This document shows, in pieces, positions 1-7,543 of a stretch of 64,000 nt of DNA. This DNA comes from Candidatus Atabeyarchaeum deiterrae (GTDB lineage: Archaea > Asgardarchaeota > Atabeyarchaeia > Atabeyarchaeales > Atabeyarchaeaceae): positions 128,001-192,000 of the forward strand of contig CP147780.1 of assembly GCA_037310415.1 (NCBI GenBank), written 5' to 3'. Position numbers and translations under genes: made by a program. The notes under the pieces are model-generated. The model had not been told where the DNA came from. It did not search any database and worked only from the letters and a program-made list of their open reading frames with translations. Positions within the stretch are counted from its first letter, which is position 1. Each line of letters opens with the position of its first letter.

Positions 1-9
1 ATCCTCCCC

Positions 10-882
10 TTGGTCGAAATAGCAATCAGGAGGCGATATCTAAAATCCTACGGCAAAACGCCACGCCAGGGGGCATATAAGGACTTTCACGATCTAGCTT
101 TCAATTTACTGAGGGTTGTCGAGGAAAATCCGAGATGCTTGGCCATAGCCAATCGCCTCTGTAGGGTATTCTGTCACTACATAGAGTTGTCTACTGGCGA
201 GGCGGAGCGCGTCTTAGACGCGCTGAAGATCACTCGGGAGGCTGCTGGAATATTCGTTAGCTACTGTGTGCTCAATCGAACGACGCTTGTCAATCTCGAC
301 GCTCGAGACGACGGCGGAAAATTGGACAAGAGACTCCGTGAGATAATTATCGCCAAAAGTGACAAATATCGTGAACTCCGCGCGAGAATCGTATGGATGA
401 TCTTTCAAGCTCTCGACCAGAACCCATCTGACTTTGACGCATTCAGACCCTACATAGACTTGTGTTTGGAGCAGCAATACAGTACAGAGTTCTACAATAG
501 AATCGAGTTGATTTTAAGTTTTTGGATAAGGAAACGGCCTGATATCTGTATCCATTGGTTCAGATTGATGCTCAAGCAGGTCTCTTACGTAGCGGAGTCT
601 GAGAGTCAAGTAGTTGCTCGAGGCGGCATATGGCTACTCTACGCTGAGAGCATCATTGAGGCAGTAGCTATGGAACGTCCTAGTGAACTGGCAGGGCTAA
701 TGAAAAACCTGGTGACACTTTGGAAAAGCAGAGTGTGGATTGGAGATCTCAGACGATTGTTCGAAAGTTACAGACTGGTATCGGATAAGAAAAGGAGAAC
801 GGAAATCAGGAGCGAGTTTCAGCTCCTTTATGACTCTGTAAATCTGCTGCATCCGAATGCTTGCAAGGTTGACTGGGACTGA
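10..882 (+). CDS. Hypothetical helical protein, probably the 3' part of a gene entering from left of the window
   Basis: 290-aa ORF whose frame is open from base 1; helical, Leu/Arg/Trp-rich; no family motif recognised. Confidence 0.6.
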   Translation: MVEIAIRRRYLKSYGKTPRQGAYKDFHDLAFNLLRVVEENPRCLAIANRLCRVFCHYIELSTGEAERVLDALKITREAAGIFVSYCVLNRTTLVNLDARDDGGKLDKRLREIIIAKSDKYRELRARIVWMIFQALDQNPSDFDAFRPYIDLCLEQQYSTEFYNRIELILSFWIRKRPDICIHWFRLMLKQVSYVAESESQVVARGGIWLLYAESIIEAVAMERPSELAGLMKNLVTLWKSRVWIGDLRRLFESYRLVSDKKRRTEIRSEFQLLYDSVNLLHPNACKVDWD

Positions 883-1144
883 ATGCGCATAGGCGCCCAA
901 CAAGGGATCCGTCAAAAGATTGAAGCCAGTCACTTCAACAAAGAGTAAAGAAAGATATTGAGGCACAATGAATTCTTGAAATCGTAGCAACGTCCGTAAA
1001 AGGGTACCCCGCAAAGAAAGCTTTTCCTGAGAAGAGGCCAGCGTCGGACTCAGGGTTGAGTTTAATGATTCCTTTTTCAACGCCTTTCAATGCTATTCCA
1101 CAAAGAAATGAAGGGGAAATTGTTTCTTCGCTGGCTGCCGCTGT

Positions 1145-3349
1145 CTACTCCTTCTCTAAGAAATCCTCATAGGACGGCGGACGCGGATCCAAACCCCTAC
1201 GCTTCCTAATCTGACCAATAATATCCGCCTGCATACTCTCGGGCACAGGGGCCCAGTGCGAGAATTGGCTAGCCCAGAACGCTCTTCCTTCGGTGGAGGA
1301 TCTGAGTTCTTCTGCGAGTCCGAAGCTTTCGGCTACCGGAATATTGGCTTTCACGATCATCATGTCTTCCTCAGTAGGTATGTCCAAGACATGACCGCGC
1401 CTTTTCTGGATTGTTGACAACACGGGACTGACGAAGTCTGAGGGAACCTTAACTTCAAGCAGCATTATGGGTTCAAGCAGCTTTGGATCACTTAACAGGA
1501 AGCAACACCAAATCGGACGCCAAGTCATAGGCAAAATTTGTGCAGGCCCCCTGTGCACTGGGTCCTCATGAAGTTCTAGGTCTGTTATGTTTACTTTGAG
1601 TCCGTATGCGTGTTCTTTTGTTAGGACGCTGTCGTCTACTGCGTCTCTGAATCCTGCTTTTACTTGTTCTATTACTTCTTCTACGTATTGTCTTCCTTTG
1701 ACTCTGTTGACTAGGATGTTTGTGTCTTCTACTGCTATGACGTTGCGTGCGTCTTCGCTTGGCCAGTTGTATGTTTTTTGGAATATTTGGTGGCGTTCGT
1801 CTTTTGATTGCATGTCGGTTATTTTTTCTTCTTTTATGGCTTGTATGATTTCTTCTGGGAGTTTTTCGATTGTTATCCAGCATCTGTTGTGTTTGTTTGG
1901 TGATTTGCCGAGGATGGGGCGTCCTTCGTAGTTTTTGGTTATGGTTTCTCTGTATATGACTATGGGTTTTGATGTTTTGACTTTTAGTCCTGCTTCTTGC
2001 ATTCTGTATGCGGTTATTTCGAGGTGTAGTTCGCCCATGCCGCTTAGGAGGTATTCGCCTGATTCTTTGTTCATGGTGAATCTTAGGTTGGGGTCTTCGA
2101 GTGTTAGTTTTCTTATGACTTTGTCGAATTTTGGTAGGTCTTGGACGTTTTCTGGTTCTACTGCGACTGTTACTACTGGGTCTGAGACGTAGTGTAGTCC
2201 TTCGAAGGGTTGGACTTCGAGTGTGGGTTCTGATATTGTTTCGCCTACGCGGATTCCTTGTATTCCGCTGATTGCGGCTATGTTTCCTGCGGGGATTTTG
2301 TCGACTATGACTCTGTCGGCTGCCATTGACATGTAGACTTGTTGTATTTTTCCTTCGTTTTTGGATGTGATGAGTTTGATTGGTTTTCCTTTTTCGACTG
2401 TTCCGCTGAAGACTCTTCCGATGGCTATGACGCCGCTTTGGGGGTCTACTTCGATGGTTGATATGCACATTAGGAGTGGGCCTTTGTCATTGACGGTTGA
2501 GAGTGATTTGCCCATTTCGCTTTGTAGGTCTCCTGGCCAGATGACTGGTGCTCTGTAGGATTGGGCTTCTAGCGGATTCGGTAGGTGCTGCACGAACATG
2601 TCTAGTACGGTTTCTTGTAGGGGGGAGCGTTTTGCTAGTTCTTCGAGGCTTCCGCCTTCTTTGTGTGCATCGATTATGTCTTTGAAGGTGAGTTTGTTGG
2701 CTTGCATGTGTGGGTAGTTTGTGCCCCATTTGTAGAGTGCTGCGCCGAATGCGACTCTCCCATCTTCTACCTCGACTTGCCAGTCTTTCTTATGTTCTGG
2801 CGGAGCATATTTCTCTATTAGGGTGTTCACTTTTCTGATGATTTTGGCGAATTTCTCTTGGATGGTTTGTGGGGTAAGTCTGATTTCTTTTATGAGTCGG
2901 TCGACTTTGTTGATGAAGAGAAGTGGTTTCACTCTTTCTCTTAGTGCTTGCATTAGCACGGTTTCTGTTTGTGTCATTGGTCCTTCAACGGCGTCGACGA
3001 CTACGAGTGCGCCGTCGACTGCTCTCAGAGATCTGGTGACGGCCCCAGAGAAGTCGATGTGTCCTGGTGTGTCAATCAGGTTGATGAGATACTCTACCCC
3101 TTTGTAGGTGTGGGCGAGTGAGACGTTGCTTGCAAAGACTGTCATTTGGCGTTTCTGTTCGAGTTCCCACGAGTCCAAGAAGAGTTTCTTTCCGGCAGTT
3201 TCCTGGCTTATTATTCCTGCAGCGGCTAGTAAGCTGTCGGAGAGCGTTGTCTTGCCGTGGTCTACGTGGGCAATGATGCTGGTGTTTCTAATCTTTTGCC
3301 TTTCATTCATTAGTTTTACGATTTCGTCTACTTGCTTGTATCTTCCCAA
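1145..3349 (-). CDS. fusA: Translation elongation factor 2 (archaeal EF-2, probably the aEF-2p paralog)
   Basis: AHVDHGKTT, DTPGHIDF, NKVD, SGMGELHLE, KSPNKHN and diphthamide-loop HRGPAQ; TTG start after GGAGG. Confidence 0.97.
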   Translation of the reverse strand: MGRYKQVDEIVKLMNERQKIRNTSIIAHVDHGKTTLSDSLLAAAGIISQETAGKKLFLDSWELEQKRQMTVFASNVSLAHTYKGVEYLINLIDTPGHIDFSGAVTRSLRAVDGALVVVDAVEGPMTQTETVLMQALRERVKPLLFINKVDRLIKEIRLTPQTIQEKFAKIIRKVNTLIEKYAPPEHKKDWQVEVEDGRVAFGAALYKWGTNYPHMQANKLTFKDIIDAHKEGGSLEELAKRSPLQETVLDMFVQHLPNPLEAQSYRAPVIWPGDLQSEMGKSLSTVNDKGPLLMCISTIEVDPQSGVIAIGRVFSGTVEKGKPIKLITSKNEGKIQQVYMSMAADRVIVDKIPAGNIAAISGIQGIRVGETISEPTLEVQPFEGLHYVSDPVVTVAVEPENVQDLPKFDKVIRKLTLEDPNLRFTMNKESGEYLLSGMGELHLEITAYRMQEAGLKVKTSKPIVIYRETITKNYEGRPILGKSPNKHNRCWITIEKLPEEIIQAIKEEKITDMQSKDERHQIFQKTYNWPSEDARNVIAVEDTNILVNRVKGRQYVEEVIEQVKAGFRDAVDDSVLTKEHAYGLKVNITDLELHEDPVHRGPAQILPMTWRPIWCCFLLSDPKLLEPIMLLEVKVPSDFVSPVLSTIQKRRGHVLDIPTEEDMMIVKANIPVAESFGLAEELRSSTEGRAFWASQFSHWAPVPESMQADIIGQIRKRRGLDPRPPSYEDFLEKE

Positions 3350-3713
3350 AACTGTTCAGCCTCCAGTGTAGAACTAGGAGCTACTGTGTTCTCCCATAAT
3401 TACTACTTGTTAGAATCTTCATCTCAGTCACAATTAGAAGTGATAAGCAACATGGTAGAGCAATGTTTTGAAGTGAAACGATCAAAGTAATGGAGTATAA
3501 AAGTTTTTCTAGGAGCTTTGCAGACAATACCGACCTTTGTGGCTTATTAAAAGTTGTGAGAACTGCTTGACGAATCCGTAATCAGTACCTGTAATGAGGT
3601 AAACACCATCCTGACGTGGGGACCTGTTGAATAGTTTTATAGGATTTGCAATGATAGTGATTGGTGTGAGCCGATGGGTTACCTTCATTCGATGATGTGT
3701 GGCTGAGTCATAG

Positions 3714-4007
3714 TTGAACTCTGAAGGCATTTCGGTAACGCAACTCGTAGATGTTACTGGACAAGGAGTATTCCAATTCAGAGTTGAGGTAGCAACTCCT
3801 TCATCTGACTTCAAGGATATTCCTTTCAGCCATGAGTATATGTTGTTTGGTGTGGATGGGGATGGAAGGAAGCTCTATGCATCTGCGTGGCTTGACCTTG
3901 AGAGTGTCTTGAAAGAAGTTGAACGAATATCGACAGAATTGAAATCGCGGGGCAAGACGGTCCTTGTTTCGAGCAGGGTGAGAAGCAGAGTCGTCGATAC
4001 ACTGTGA
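3714..4007 (+). CDS. Small hypothetical protein
   Basis: 97-aa ORF with protein-like composition, co-oriented just upstream of hypF. Confidence 0.55.
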   Translation: MNSEGISVTQLVDVTGQGVFQFRVEVATPSSDFKDIPFSHEYMLFGVDGDGRKLYASAWLDLESVLKEVERISTELKSRGKTVLVSSRVRSRVVDTL

Positions 4008-4115
4008 TCCTCAGCCATGTTATTCGTTCTTTCGTTTACATACGTGAATTAATCAGCCGAGTGCGCTCATCTGATTGGTGGACTTGAACTAGGGTCAGGA
4101 TGTGTTCTTGCGTTT

Positions 4116-6404
4116 ATGCCAAGGGCTGAGATACTCGTCAAAGGGATCGTCCAGGGAGTAGGCTTCCGCCCATTTATTTACCGAATCGCAGTCAAGAATA
4201 GATTAGCAGGCTACGTCAGAAACCGTGGAGATGCTGGGGTCGAGATTGTAGTCGAGGGAAGAAGAAGTGATATTGACCAGTTTGTGTCTGATATAAGGGA
4301 GGAGAAACCTCCACTTGCCCAGATATATGACATGGACGTCAAGTTCATCGACGGCGTGGACAGTGCTTTTTCCGGATTCTCGATTTCTGAGAGTTCAATT
4401 GAGAGAGAACTTTCAGGATCGGTGGTCCCTCCTGACGTTGCCATATGTGACGAATGTGTGAAGGAACTCAGGAATCCGCATGATAGAAGGCATGATTACT
4501 TCTTCACAACGTGCACGAATTGCGGACCCAGATATACTACGATCCTCGGATTGCCGTATGATAGACCGAATACGACAATGCAGGGTTTTGAAATGTGTGA
4601 TGAGTGCAAGGCGGAGTATGTCGACTCCAAGGATAGGAGGTTTCATGCTCAGACGATCGCTTGCCCTAGGTGTGGACCTAAGGTCTATCTTCTTGAGAAG
4701 GACGGCAGTCGAGTGGAGAGCGAAGATCCTGTTAGAGCTGCGGGAAAACTCATTGAAGAAGGGTACGTGCTGGCTGTCAAAGGTAATGGTGGGTTTCATG
4801 TCGCCACGTCCACTTTGAAGGATGAACCTTTGGATCGACTGAGAAGGGTTAAGCATCGTTCTCAAAAACCATTTGCCATAATGTCGCCGACTATTGGACG
4901 AATACGAGAGTATGCCAGGGTGAATAGATCTGAAGAGGGGCTTCTGACCTCATATATGAAGCCGATAGTTTTACTGGATAAGAGTGAGGATTACCAGCTT
5001 TCAGATCTCGTTGCTCCGGGGTTGCATAATGTCGGGGTTATGTTGCCTTACACAGGCCTTCATATGATGTTGTTTGACGCGGTTGGTGAACCTGCGTTTG
5101 TGATGACAAGTGCCAATCCTTCAGGCGAACCCATAGTTATCGAGGATGATAAGGCACTAAAGGAATTGGGAGGGAACCTTGTTGATTATCTGCTTGTGCA
5201 TAATAGGAGCATTGCGCAGAGATGTGATGATTCGGTCGTCAGAGTATCTCCTGCAGCCACATTGAATATCGTTAGAAGGTCAAGGGGATTCGCCCCTGCA
5301 CCATTACATCTTGAAAGAAGTTCAAAGCTGTGCACGTTAGCCGTTGGCGGCGAGTTCAATGTTACTTCATGCATTCTTCTACGAAACAAAGCATTCATCT
5401 CACAACACGTTGGAGACATAGAAAAGTATGAAACGTTCATGTTCCTCAAACAGGCAACGAGACACCTTGTCAACTTGACGAATGCTAGGGTTGAACTTGT
5501 CGCATGTGATTTACATCCCAAGTTTGCAACTACGATGCTTGCTAGAGCGTTCGGAGAGGAGTTCAAAGCTGATGTGGCACAGGTTCAACATCACCATGCC
5601 CATGTGGCTGCCCTTATGGGTGAACAACTTATCCCAGAAATGATCGGGATCTCATGCGATGGGGCGGGCTACGGAACTGACGGAAATATCTGGGGGGGAG
5701 AGGTGCTTTACTGCACAGAATACGGAAAGAGCTTTGAGAGGCTGGGTCACTTACAGGAACAACCAATGCCAGGAGGGGATTTGGCTGCGCTCCACCCACT
5801 CAGAATGGTTGCAGGTCTGCTTCACGATTACCCTGAGATCGCCGAGCGTCTTCTCAGATCAAGAAGCTCTCGCTTTCCTCATGGCAAGACTGAAATCGAT
5901 GTGGTAATGAAGCAACTGGGGTCCAAGAGAAGCCCTGTCACGTCAAGTTGTGGACGTGTTTTGGACGCCGTTTCATCACTTCTTGGAGTGTGCTATGAAA
6001 GAAGCTATGAGGGTGAACCTGCGATGAAACTTGAGTCGGTTGCTCTGAGAGGAAAGAACAAACTTGATCTCAAGACGGAATTCGTGAACGACAACGTCAT
6101 CCGTACGGACAACCTAGTATTGGCTCTTGTAGAGAACTTGGAAAAGGAAGCTATTCATGATCTTGCTAATTCGGCAGAGGAGTACATTGCAAGAAGCTTG
6201 GCAGATGTTGCGCTGCATGAGGCTGATCGATTGAGCGTCAAATGTATCGGATTTACCGGCGGAGTGGCTTACAATGGTCACATTTATTCCGTGATACAGA
6301 AGGCAGCCACCTCGCACGGATGCAAGTTCTATGGGCATAATGCGGTTCCCCCGGGGGATGGCGGGCTTTCTTTTGGACAGGCAATAGCCACAGGTTTAGG
6401 TTAG
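4116..6404 (+). CDS. hypF: Carbamoyltransferase HypF
   Basis: Acylphosphatase domain GIVQGVGFRPF, two Zn fingers (CDEC/CTNC, CDEC/CPRC), QHHHAH, DGGLSFGQ. Confidence 0.97.
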   Translation: MPRAEILVKGIVQGVGFRPFIYRIAVKNRLAGYVRNRGDAGVEIVVEGRRSDIDQFVSDIREEKPPLAQIYDMDVKFIDGVDSAFSGFSISESSIERELSGSVVPPDVAICDECVKELRNPHDRRHDYFFTTCTNCGPRYTTILGLPYDRPNTTMQGFEMCDECKAEYVDSKDRRFHAQTIACPRCGPKVYLLEKDGSRVESEDPVRAAGKLIEEGYVLAVKGNGGFHVATSTLKDEPLDRLRRVKHRSQKPFAIMSPTIGRIREYARVNRSEEGLLTSYMKPIVLLDKSEDYQLSDLVAPGLHNVGVMLPYTGLHMMLFDAVGEPAFVMTSANPSGEPIVIEDDKALKELGGNLVDYLLVHNRSIAQRCDDSVVRVSPAATLNIVRRSRGFAPAPLHLERSSKLCTLAVGGEFNVTSCILLRNKAFISQHVGDIEKYETFMFLKQATRHLVNLTNARVELVACDLHPKFATTMLARAFGEEFKADVAQVQHHHAHVAALMGEQLIPEMIGISCDGAGYGTDGNIWGGEVLYCTEYGKSFERLGHLQEQPMPGGDLAALHPLRMVAGLLHDYPEIAERLLRSRSSRFPHGKTEIDVVMKQLGSKRSPVTSSCGRVLDAVSSLLGVCYERSYEGEPAMKLESVALRGKNKLDLKTEFVNDNVIRTDNLVLALVENLEKEAIHDLANSAEEYIARSLADVALHEADRLSVKCIGFTGGVAYNGHIYSVIQKAATSHGCKFYGHNAVPPGDGGLSFGQAIATGLG

Positions 6405-6472
6405 ATCCTAATAATGTTCACAATTATCTAGAAGGAGAACATGGAACGCAGAAGAGGCAGGGTAGTGATTGC

Positions 6473-7543
6473 TTGTTTGTTCCAGCGCATACCATCTGGC
6501 TCCTTAGTGATAGCGATGTGAAGGCCCGACTGAGCATCACAAGGGATTTTGTCAAGAGTACCCATGTTGAATCAATTGGCTTTGAAGTTTTGCAGAGAGA
6601 ACAGTCACTCCTAGAGTCAAGGATCAAGACTCAAGTCACAAGGGCGCTTAGGATCAAGAGAGAACTGTCGAGCCTAGGTGTCAAGACGTCTTTATCAGTT
6701 CATACGCCATTCACTCCGATAGGTAGGTTCTGTTTGGCTTCTGAGCGATCCGAGATCAGGAGAAGAGGGATTGAGGCCGTCAAGACATGCGTCGGGCTGG
6801 CGGAACATATTGGAGCACAAGTCGTGAATACTCATCCTGGCGGAATCGTAAAGATCACAAATCGGAACTTCTCGGATCCTGCCGTAAAACGATTGGCGTT
6901 AGCCAATCTGAAAGAGTCGCTAGCTGAGCTAGTCGACTGGATGGAAGGACGCAGTGTAATGCTAGCAGTGGAGAACATTCCTTACCCATTGGAGGAACTG
7001 TTCCAAGGATACTCTCCCCTTGTAGGCATCTTTCCTGAAGACTTTGTGGAAATCTTCAGAGACATTGACTCGAAAGCTCTGGGGTTGACAGTTGATTTCT
7101 GTCACCTTTGGATAACCTTCAAGACGCTGAGGGGATTCAGAGCAATGAAGAAACGCAATTCCTCGGGGCGTGGCACCAACGTCTCTGGCTACCTAGGGTT
7201 GACTTCATATGAATCAGAGGCAATCAAATCCTTTGCAGGTGATCCATTTGAGGCCTTCATGAACAGACTGAACGAGAAAGTGGTTCATGTTCATGCTGCT
7301 GACTCTGACGGTGTTTTCGTTCCAGGAAAGAGTATGGTTTCTGAGGGAATCGCCTTGGGCGAAGGGGATTTGGATCTCAATAGCTTTGCTCGCGCCCTAA
7401 GAGAAATAGAGCGAACAAGAAAGCAAGTTGAGCCCGTAATGATTGTTCTCGAGCCCAAGGAATTGGATTTCGGTAATCCTTTGAATTCATCAAAGAGTCT
7501 ACTCAGACTGGAAGAATTGCTACGGAACAAAGTTGTAGTGTGA
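6473..7543 (+). CDS. Xylose-isomerase-like / AP-endonuclease-2 TIM-barrel metalloprotein
   Basis: SVHTP, NTHPG, VENIP, VDFCHL, HVHAADSDG, LGEGDLD and VLEP metal-ligand pattern. Confidence 0.8.
   Translation: MFVPAHTIWLLSDSDVKARLSITRDFVKSTHVESIGFEVLQREQSLLESRIKTQVTRALRIKRELSSLGVKTSLSVHTPFTPIGRFCLASERSEIRRRGIEAVKTCVGLAEHIGAQVVNTHPGGIVKITNRNFSDPAVKRLALANLKESLAELVDWMEGRSVMLAVENIPYPLEELFQGYSPLVGIFPEDFVEIFRDIDSKALGLTVDFCHLWITFKTLRGFRAMKKRNSSGRGTNVSGYLGLTSYESEAIKSFAGDPFEAFMNRLNEKVVHVHAADSDGVFVPGKSMVSEGIALGEGDLDLNSFARALREIERTRKQVEPVMIVLEPKELDFGNPLNSSKSLLRLEELLRNKVVV

Follow-up and report, generated by a model that had tools for sequence, protein, structure and literature searches.

Strand asymmetry in the base composition of DNA is normally weak and extends over whole genomes. 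Transcription-associated mutational asymmetry renders the non-template strand G+T-rich, and the intron-less homing of the seg and mob genes of phage T4 provides a comparison case for the sites of homing endonucleases. The heavy strand of vertebrate mitochondrial DNA (mtDNA) undergoes C>T and A>G changes while it is single-stranded during strand-displacement replication (cf. PMC3269012). In Escherichia coli, mutation hotspots that lie near double-strand breaks and depend on resection are strongest within 2 kb and fade out over tens of kilobases (PMC3607216). The asymmetry described here was found in the gene for elongation factor 2 (EF-2), which is among the most conserved that a cell has, in a stretch of 64,000 nucleotides (hereafter the window) of the Asgard archaeon Candidatus Atabeyarchaeum deiterrae (GenBank assembly GCA_037310415.1, contig CP147780.1, positions 128,001–192,000). 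It is all-or-none, kilobase-scale, sharp to within a codon or two and placed at the same codon across genera.

The chromosome is closed and comprises 2,756,679 bp with a GC content of 46.6%. The EF-2 gene lies on the minus strand (Table 1) and matches the NCBIfam aEF-2 equivalog with 875 bits against a cut-off of 738. No second full-length EF-2 was matched in the genome, and the gene in the window is thus the only one. Codons 288–592 form a run of 305 codons, in which all of the 296 codons encoding neither Met nor Trp end in A or C and the only G-ending codons are seven ATG and two TGG. Third-position counts per 30-codon block contain only A and C from codon 301 to about codon 595, ATG and TGG aside. 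Over the saturated tract, the plus strand has a keto share (G+T) of 0.68–0.75 at all sites and 1.00 at third positions, and the anchor at the end of the run is a sharp upward step in plus-strand keto content (D = 0.42), located at genome position 129,572. After the end of the tract, the A/C share drops to about 0.5 within one codon, and the last 142 codons of the gene have a third-position A/C share of 0.45. The genome-wide share is 0.52 ± 0.05 (2085 open reading frames, ORFs). The chance of a 296-codon run is 0.52^296, or about 1e-84, with the genome mean share and 0.827^296, or about 4e-25, with the gene's own share.

The original prediction, made from the letters of the window, had reported about 300 consecutive EF-2 codons ending only in A or C, next to genes with mixed wobble bases, and both statements are borne out by these counts. 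The positions that it gave, 1566–2468, are the limits of an overlapping shadow ORF, whereas the A/C run itself covers 1574–2488. It had also placed a weaker continuation up to about position 2730; the continuation is real, but it reaches the start codon, with the A/C share declining from 0.90 to 0.77.

Both A and C are used in the four-fold families of the EF-2 tract, with leucine encoded by CTA or CTC in 20 of 20 cases and arginine by AGA or CGC. The tract is the exact end state of all silent G>A and T>C changes on the coding strand, that is, of C>T and A>G on the plus strand. The matching end state includes the first-position leucine change TTR>CTR, and AGA is kept for arginine. Over the three tracts of this type in the genome, described below, leucine is encoded by CTR in 65 of 65 cases and by TTA in none of the 65, compared with 17.7% TTA genome-wide among TTA, CTA and CTC (p = 3e-6). 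The shadow ORF is a by-product of the wobble bias and contains no stops because the wobble positions carry no T. It is present as had been described, with no F, Y, C, W or stop. The eight G-starting residues listed for it (V, G, E, G, A, D, A, A) were all recovered, the start V being an extra one.

The tract was compared across a family of five members, namely the genome under study (G000), its closest closed relative (G001, 2,808,651 bp, another genus), G002 and two Joint Genome Institute (JGI) metagenome contigs from other samples (L034 and L035). The outgroups were L036 and L037, with an EF-2 identity of 72–79%; many such sequences are labelled Bathyarchaeia. The amino acid identity of EF-2 to that of G000 is 87% in G001, 90% in G002, 82% in L034 and 84% in L035. 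The tract edge falls within codons 591–595 in all five members, just before the D-P-V-H-R-G motif (diphthamide loop), so that the comparison of orthologs suggested with the original prediction returned the same edge in each of the four relatives. Saturation of the tract covers codons 2–594 in L034, and in L035, the wobble base flips after codon 594 to about 75% G/T, which is the mirror image of the tract. The nearest outgroups and other Asgard EF-2 genes have ordinary wobble usage and no tract. At codon positions 1 and 2, this family alone has a slightly higher A/C share in the tract and a lower one in the 3′ part.

Between G000 and G001, 52 of the 258 comparable silent third positions of the tract differ, and 47 of these 52 differences are A<>C exchanges. 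The four-fold transversion divergence in the tract amounts to 35–42%, which is close to that of the 3′ part; with G and T still excluded, the silent sites must have turned over many times. An edge common to five lineages, with the free sites scrambled between A and C, indicates that a standing pressure was inherited and not a sequence. Environmental contigs from four studies carry the stretch or its relatives, and the variants within the tract are mostly T<>G on the plus strand. A 447-nt contig of run X3 spans the edge with zero differences; X3 may share the source of the window.

The bias follows the DNA strand and not the direction of the genes, both at atpB and at the EF-2 locus of G001. 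In G001, the switch is the centre of a skew domain of about 15 kb, which takes in numerous transcription units, oriented both ways. Rightward of the switch, EF-2 (minus strand) has an A/C share of 0.83 and hypF (plus strand) a share of 0.35; among the eleven genes to the left, those on the minus strand mostly have 0.29–0.42 and the one plus-strand gene has 0.65. Each strand is G/T-rich on the side on which it runs 5′ to 3′ away from the switch, and this is the polarity of a replication origin. In the window, hypF is directed oppositely to EF-2 and has the same plus-strand bias as the EF-2 tract. The bias fades within about 2 kb in G000 and within about 5–11 kb in G001. On the left side of the switch in G000, it relaxes and is less clear than in G001, probably because a 2.5-kb element was inserted there; on this side, it is reversed in the relatives. 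The proximal limit of the tract lies inside the gene, at codon 592, and the distal limit is near the gene start and the promoter. A TATA-like box upstream of the start codon is probably the EF-2 promoter and would mark this distal limit.

The longest A/C-only runs among the 2085 ORFs belong to atpB (330 codons), EF-2 (305 codons) and a RuBisCO-like gene (209 codons), and the next run has 35 codons. The atpB tract comprises codons 1–330, and the RuBisCO-like tract really extends over codons 1–282 with a single G. With only three such tracts in 2.76 Mb, the phenomenon is discrete and not a general trend. The 3′ part of atpB is in the mirror state, with 14% A/C and with TTG, GAT and AAG in use; over codons 331–500, one and the same mRNA swings to the other extreme of the bias. 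Upstream of atpB, a 420-nt spacer consists almost entirely of G and T on the plus strand. Beyond it lie a plus-strand C13 peptidase gene with G/T-ending codons and then a minus-strand HerA-like gene with A/C-ending codons. The anchors of the tracts are located in the diphthamide loop region of EF-2, in T-M-P-x-x-D-I-T-H-P of AtpB and in P-I-M-G-H-M-D of the RuBisCO-like protein. All three sit in the most conserved motifs of their proteins.

Sharp steps with origin-like polarity outnumber terminus-like steps genome-wide, by 12 to 4 at D > 0.40 and by 35 to 17 at D > 0.35. Over the genome as a whole, GC skew is weak. No shared DNA motif was obvious at the switches among 18 sharp steps; GGCC is found at a distance of about 24 nt from the switch of EF-2 and one switch of the RuBisCO-like gene, and is absent at atpB. 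Displaced copies of the 3′ end were found for EF-2 (one, of the last 41 codons) and for atpB (four), and none for the RuBisCO-like gene. A foreign origin as the feature common to the three tracts was rejected, as atpB is vertically Asgard-like; a close AtpB match in NR is labelled Njordarchaeota. Integration sites of the tRNA type were likewise rejected, as the seven tRNA genes found by ARAGORN all lie away from the steps. A LAGLIDADG-type ORF (genome 2556090–2557055, minus strand, A/C 0.33) lies about 0.5 kb to the left of the third-sharpest step, at 2,557,576. This link was discarded, as the domain at the step is only moderately skewed and two other LAGLIDADG genes lie in ordinary DNA.

The explanation that we favour, and consider to be somewhat on the probable side, is a site-anchored, strand-asymmetric and long-lived transition pressure on DNA, and we infer that this pressure is mutational. 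The tract would then be the saturated core of a strand-composition domain anchored inside EF-2 at codons 592–595, near window position 1570. Rightward of the anchor, toward the 5′ end of EF-2, the plus strand would lose A and C at every selection-free site. The pressure would consist of C>T and A>G changes on the strand that runs outward, would be strongest at the anchor and would fade over kilobases, and purifying selection on the protein would hide it except at silent sites. The transition bias required would be at least about 100:1.

Such a pressure might act in two ways, to which we give roughly equal weight. The outward strand may be repeatedly exposed as single-stranded DNA and deaminated, by way of local replication initiation or of divergent or antisense transcription with R-loops. 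Alternatively, a nick or break at a specific site may be the start of repeated rounds of resynthesis of this strand, in which an error-prone polymerase introduces G·T mispairs. After a break, the 3′ ends would be extended across it, giving a new plus strand on the right and a new minus strand on the left, as observed, whereas the sign would be reversed if the resected single-stranded tails were deaminated.

Deamination of persistently single-stranded DNA had been put forward in the original prediction. Its transitions and its strand logic agree with the data, but it is not established as the cause, since in the tails, where saturation is partial, the G/T-rich strand has lost A to at least the same degree as C. 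Residual coding T in these tails is 0.06–0.08 against 0.26 genome-wide (0.25–0.3 of the genome level), and residual coding G is 0.11–0.13 against 0.21 genome-wide (0.5–0.6 of the genome level). Almost every exception in the G001 tract is a coding-strand G. Spontaneous deamination acts much faster on C and strongly favours C loss, so that plain deamination alone does not fit, and the extent of A loss is a point for resynthesis. Homing-type nucleases choose sites in conserved motifs, and the location of all three anchors in such motifs is another point for resynthesis, as are the E. coli hotspots near breaks cited above and, as a lead, the HTH-repeat genes beside EF-2 described below. The accompanying remark that the gene's own R-loop does not explain the tract holds, since the plus strand is the EF-2 template and such an R-loop would give the opposite sign.

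A more specific form of this account is offered tentatively, as a possibility that we hold to be less probable than the general one. Some Asgard archaea would have fixed sites in the most conserved motifs of essential genes, at which a bidirectional DNA transaction recurs and rewrites one strand over kilobases, leaving a saturated footprint that lasts through the history of the family. What recurs might be nicking or breakage by a sequence-specific nuclease or a mobile element that resides in the genome, or else DNA synthesis that starts locally and cryptically. Mobile-type DNA is present in the 3′ flanks of the three tract genes alike, and the gene adjoining the RuBisCO-like gene has an N-terminus that looks like that of a type IIG restriction-modification enzyme. 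One copy of a gene family with three to seven helix-turn-helix (HTH) repeats and a C-terminal domain with conserved E-L-x-V, Y-x-P-D-F and E-A-x-G motifs flanks the 3′ end of EF-2 in two genera (G000 and G001). The AlphaFold model of the HTH-repeat protein (mean pLDDT 73) had its best Foldseek matches with Bax1, restriction enzymes and the catalytic domain of I-Bth0305I, none of them at E <= 0.001. A model of reverse transcription, with cDNA overwriting the gene, was rejected, as there is no RVT_1 match in the genome. The literature searched contains no description of a natural, site-directed, strand-specific mutator.

A number of results weigh against a mutational pressure acting from a fixed site. 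The PD-(D/E)xK-like nuclease fold predicted for the C-terminal domain of the HTH-repeat family is a weak match, as is Pfam DUF559 (E = 0.09), and the link of the family to the tracts is only a lead; three other HTH-repeat paralogs of G001 lie in unskewed DNA, and L034 and L035 have no HTH-repeat homolog within 6 kb of EF-2. No Orc1/Cdc6 gene was found near the switch, the Cdc6_C matches being only at 640, 671 and 2136 kb (origin recognition box repeats were not searched). No match to the B recognition element (BRE)/TATA pattern A[AT]A..TTT[AT][AT]A lies within 400 nt of the switches in EF-2, atpB and the RuBisCO-like gene, according to a low-sensitivity scan that is weak evidence, since the pattern matches only 2.6% of upstream regions. 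Both negatives are awkward for plain deamination in particular.

Further points of this kind come from the rates and directions of change. No excess of transversion divergence marks the tract (38%, compared with 50% for the 3′ part), and it is thus not a zone of hypermutation in general. When polarised with two outgroups, the changes at codon positions 1 and 2 prove only weakly directional, with 46/505 along the bias and 35/537 against it (p = 0.13). The amino acid ratios, including I/(I+V), K/(K+R) and T/A, show no clear shift in the tract, and variable sites are only slightly richer in A/C. The weak directionality is compatible with strong protein constraint and gives no positive support to mutation over selection: at equilibrium, a mutation bias of 100:1 equals a per-site selection of 4Nes ~5, and strong protein constraint would thus mask either. 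In G000 and L034, moreover, the EF-2 tract covers almost exactly the part of the coding region that lies between the start and codon 594, which would also suit a cause at the level of the transcript.

Selection at the nucleotide level is the rival that survives best, although we regard it as unlikely. It would act on the DNA or the sense transcript, against G and T(U) in the first ~594 codons, with a normal mutation spectrum; for example, the mRNA or an unwound strand might be kept free of secondary structure or R-loops. It would accommodate the extent of the tract, which begins at the gene start in L034 (codons 2–594) and ends near the start codon in G000. The nearly undirected changes at positions 1 and 2 and the normal transversion rates are also what ordinary mutation input would give, and at atpB, the spacer and the antisense of the plus-strand gene might in principle both lie within a read-through minus-strand transcript. 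However, no known function needs a strand without G and T, and the opposite extreme is reached within one mRNA, at atpB codons 331–500 and at EF-2 codons 595–734 of L035. The domain of about 15 kb in G001, with its many transcription units of both orientations, also argues against selection, as do the EF-1alpha and thermosome genes, which are presumably among the most highly expressed and lack the bias.

Translational codon preference, in which the A/C-ending codons would be the Watson-Crick-decoded optimal codons of a highly expressed gene, is very improbable. EF-2 is presumably highly expressed, and A/C-ending codons are mildly favoured genome-wide (four-fold A+C 0.53). An ordinary preference would produce A/C-only wobble usage in all highly expressed genes, as the original prediction had pointed out, but the third-position A/C share is 0.54 in EF-1alpha (47th percentile) and 0.59 and 0.61 in the two thermosome genes. 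The genes with the highest A/C share are a mixed group (Cas1, an agmatinase-like protein, RadA) and not the translation set, and EF-2 itself departs from the pattern in its last 142 codons, as noted above. Two codons per four-fold family are in use and not one, TTA is absent, and the strand bias extends to non-coding DNA and to genes of the opposite direction (the atpB spacer, G001 hypF and the nuclease-like gene).

The import of the segment by recombination from a strongly skewed donor, which had been named as the alternative to deamination, deserves just as little credence. The gene may have a foreign history, and the 3′ end of EF-2 is an integration site. As a whole, the EF-2 of the family is closest to EF-2 of the Bathyarchaeia type (72–79% identity), with other Asgard EF-2s at 34–54%, which suggests an old replacement by horizontal transfer or the retention of a different paralog. 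However, four segments of EF-2 have the same affinity, each being 68–87% identical to EF-2 of metagenome-assembled genomes mostly labelled Bathyarchaeia and 28–54% identical to that of other Asgard families, and a mosaic origin at the switch was rejected on this ground. The nearest outgroups are without the tract. The same edge in five lineages, together with the 47 A<>C exchanges among 52 differences, speaks against a skewed donor as well: the pattern persists after A/C randomisation of the silent sites in five lineages, and a single import cannot do that.

The least credible explanation is that assembly or sequencing produced the tract artificially, or that the shadow ORF (300 codons long) is a real overlapping gene that forces the wobble bases, given that the tract recurs with the same edge in the separate assemblies G001, G002, L034 and L035, that runs from several studies yielded contigs on the tract and across its boundary, where a chimera had been envisaged (the undiffering X3 contig among them, possibly of the same source), that the EF-2 protein is intact, that an open frame needs only the avoidance of TAA, TAG and TGA and not of every G and T, that the product is of low complexity and that no Rfam family matches window positions 1–7000 at E up to 0.1.

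The insertion at the 3′ end of EF-2 is 2.5 kb long; the region concerned is window positions 1–1279 and genome 126475–129144 (L031:6475-9144). Its sole gene is a 712-aa ORF located between EF-2 and a displaced copy of the EF-2 3′ end. This copy corresponds to residues 694–734, lies 2.5 kb downstream at genome 126475–126597 and is 68% identical, with the common core ATTGGTCAGATTAGGAAGCG. The duplication of these residues downstream implies that the 3′ end of EF-2 was supplied or exchanged by the inserted element. Residues 694–734 are the least conserved part of EF-2 within the family (68–80%). In the outgroup contig L036 (L036:5546-10097), two tandem full-length EF-2 genes (740 and 734 aa) were observed, the second of which is without the HRG diphthamide motif. 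The coordinates of the features of the locus and of the HTH-repeat genes are given in Table 1.

Table 1. Features of the EF-2 locus and locations of the HTH-repeat genes. Positions are those of the window unless a locus or genome coordinate is given.
Feature	Position	Strand	Remarks
EF-2 gene	1145..3349	-	734 codons and stop; Pfam GTP_EFTU, EFG_II, III, IV, C
Saturated tract, codons 288-592	1574..2488	-	296/296 non-Met/Trp codons end in A or C
Tract tail, codons 1-287	2489..3349	-	A/C-ending share from ~0.90 to 0.77 toward the start codon
Anchor (switch point)	1562..1579	.	Codon 592/593 boundary in G000 (between 1573 and 1574)
Codons 593-660	1370..1573	-	Mixed to G/T-leaning wobble
Codons 661-690	1280..1369	-	Second short patch, almost only A/C-ending; visible also in G001 and L035
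Codons 691-734 and stop	1145..1279	-	G/T-ending 3′ end of EF-2
Shadow ORF, 300 aa	1566..2468	-	Frame starting on the EF-2 wobble base; low-complexity, rich in R, K, T, N, Q, H, P
TATA-like box AAAAACTTTTATAC	3497..3503	-	~150 nt upstream of the EF-2 start; conserved in L035; sequence read directly
hypF	4116..6404	+	Divergent from EF-2; wobble leans to G/T at ~4400-5200 (third-position G/T 0.57-0.67)
712-aa ORF, C-terminal part	1..882	+	Genome 126744-128882; no family match; unskewed composition
HTH-repeat gene, G000	L031:3949-4971 (genome 123949-124971)	+	Near the original EF-2 3′ end
HTH-repeat gene, G000, second copy	L003:1987-3372 (genome 2656987-2658372)	+	5 kb from the RuBisCO-like tract
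HTH-repeat gene, G001	L038:1050-2816		149 nt from the EF-2 stop

Several other observations were made in these genomes. An 893-aa HTH_3 family is represented by three paralogs (genome 1024299–1026980, minus strand; 939487–941214, minus strand; 600830–602158, plus strand). The first two lie in regions with a strongly G+T-rich plus strand, and the first adjoins the second-sharpest step of the genome, at 1,023,744; the third is found just past the G/T-rich domain of a HerA-like gene at 597–599 kb. This family may be a mobile gene set linked to skew. A gene at genome 2320080–2321051 (minus strand), presumably Cas1-like from its N-terminal sequence, is among the most A/C-ending genes (A/C 0.78) and lies just to the right of a sharp step at 2,319,704. 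The RuBisCO-like gene of G001 (L027, G001:2712473-2713661, minus strand) has a frame-breaking 22-nt insertion about 13 codons past the end of the A/C-only tract, which is absent at the corresponding site of G000; it could be a short intron of the bulge-helix-bulge (BHB) type, a frameshift or an error. The genome-wide ARAGORN search found only seven tRNA genes in a genome that is 97% complete, which fits reports of heavily interrupted tRNA genes in Asgard archaea.

Neither the genome papers on these organisms (PMC11291895, PMC11529989) nor the wider literature searched mention such tracts. A mutational pressure would make the tract the record of a DNA process anchored to a site, in the prokaryotes most closely related to eukaryotes; a selective one would imply a hitherto undescribed function for a strand free of G and T. 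In practical terms, the tract distorts codon-usage statistics, dN/dS, gene finding (through long false ORFs) and the nucleotide phylogenies of EF-2, AtpB and RuBisCO.

Among the known systems, the skew switch at replication origins resembles the EF-2 locus in that the outward strand is G/T-rich on both sides, the bias follows the strand and upward steps are commoner than downward ones. Origins, however, have a weak skew over a whole replichore, whereas here 100% of the silent sites are affected and the bias fades in 2–15 kb. The switch is also placed inside a coding sequence and not in an intergenic AT-rich region, and it has no Orc1/Cdc6 gene nearby in a genome of weak GC skew.

The gradient of the mtDNA heavy strand involves the same two transitions on one strand. 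The third positions of light-strand genes are almost only A/C there as well, and the bias changes with the distance from the start point. Unlike in mtDNA, where C>T saturates first, A loss here is at least equal to C loss, and the domain is two-sided and spans a few kilobases of a 2.76-Mb chromosome.

Transcription-associated asymmetry shares the transition pair and the kilobase scale, and the EF-2 tract ends near the promoter. Its sign is reversed, however, as the coding strand is A/C-rich in EF-2, atpB and the RuBisCO-like gene, and here the tract has one end within the gene, at a fixed codon, and has no link to an expression class. This type of asymmetry would fit only with a dominant antisense transcript starting at the anchor.

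Break-proximal hotspots and homing sites (PMC3607216) differ from the present case in that the nuclease is here a predicted and weakly matched one with paralogs elsewhere that are without skew, and in that the literature searched gave no case of a saturated, strand-specific silent-site footprint over evolutionary time. They are alike in the fixed site within a highly conserved motif of an essential gene and in an effect that peaks within 1–2 kb and falls off over kilobases to either side. Resynthesis of the outward strand would give the polarity observed here, and nuclease-like and mobile genes lie by the 3′ end.

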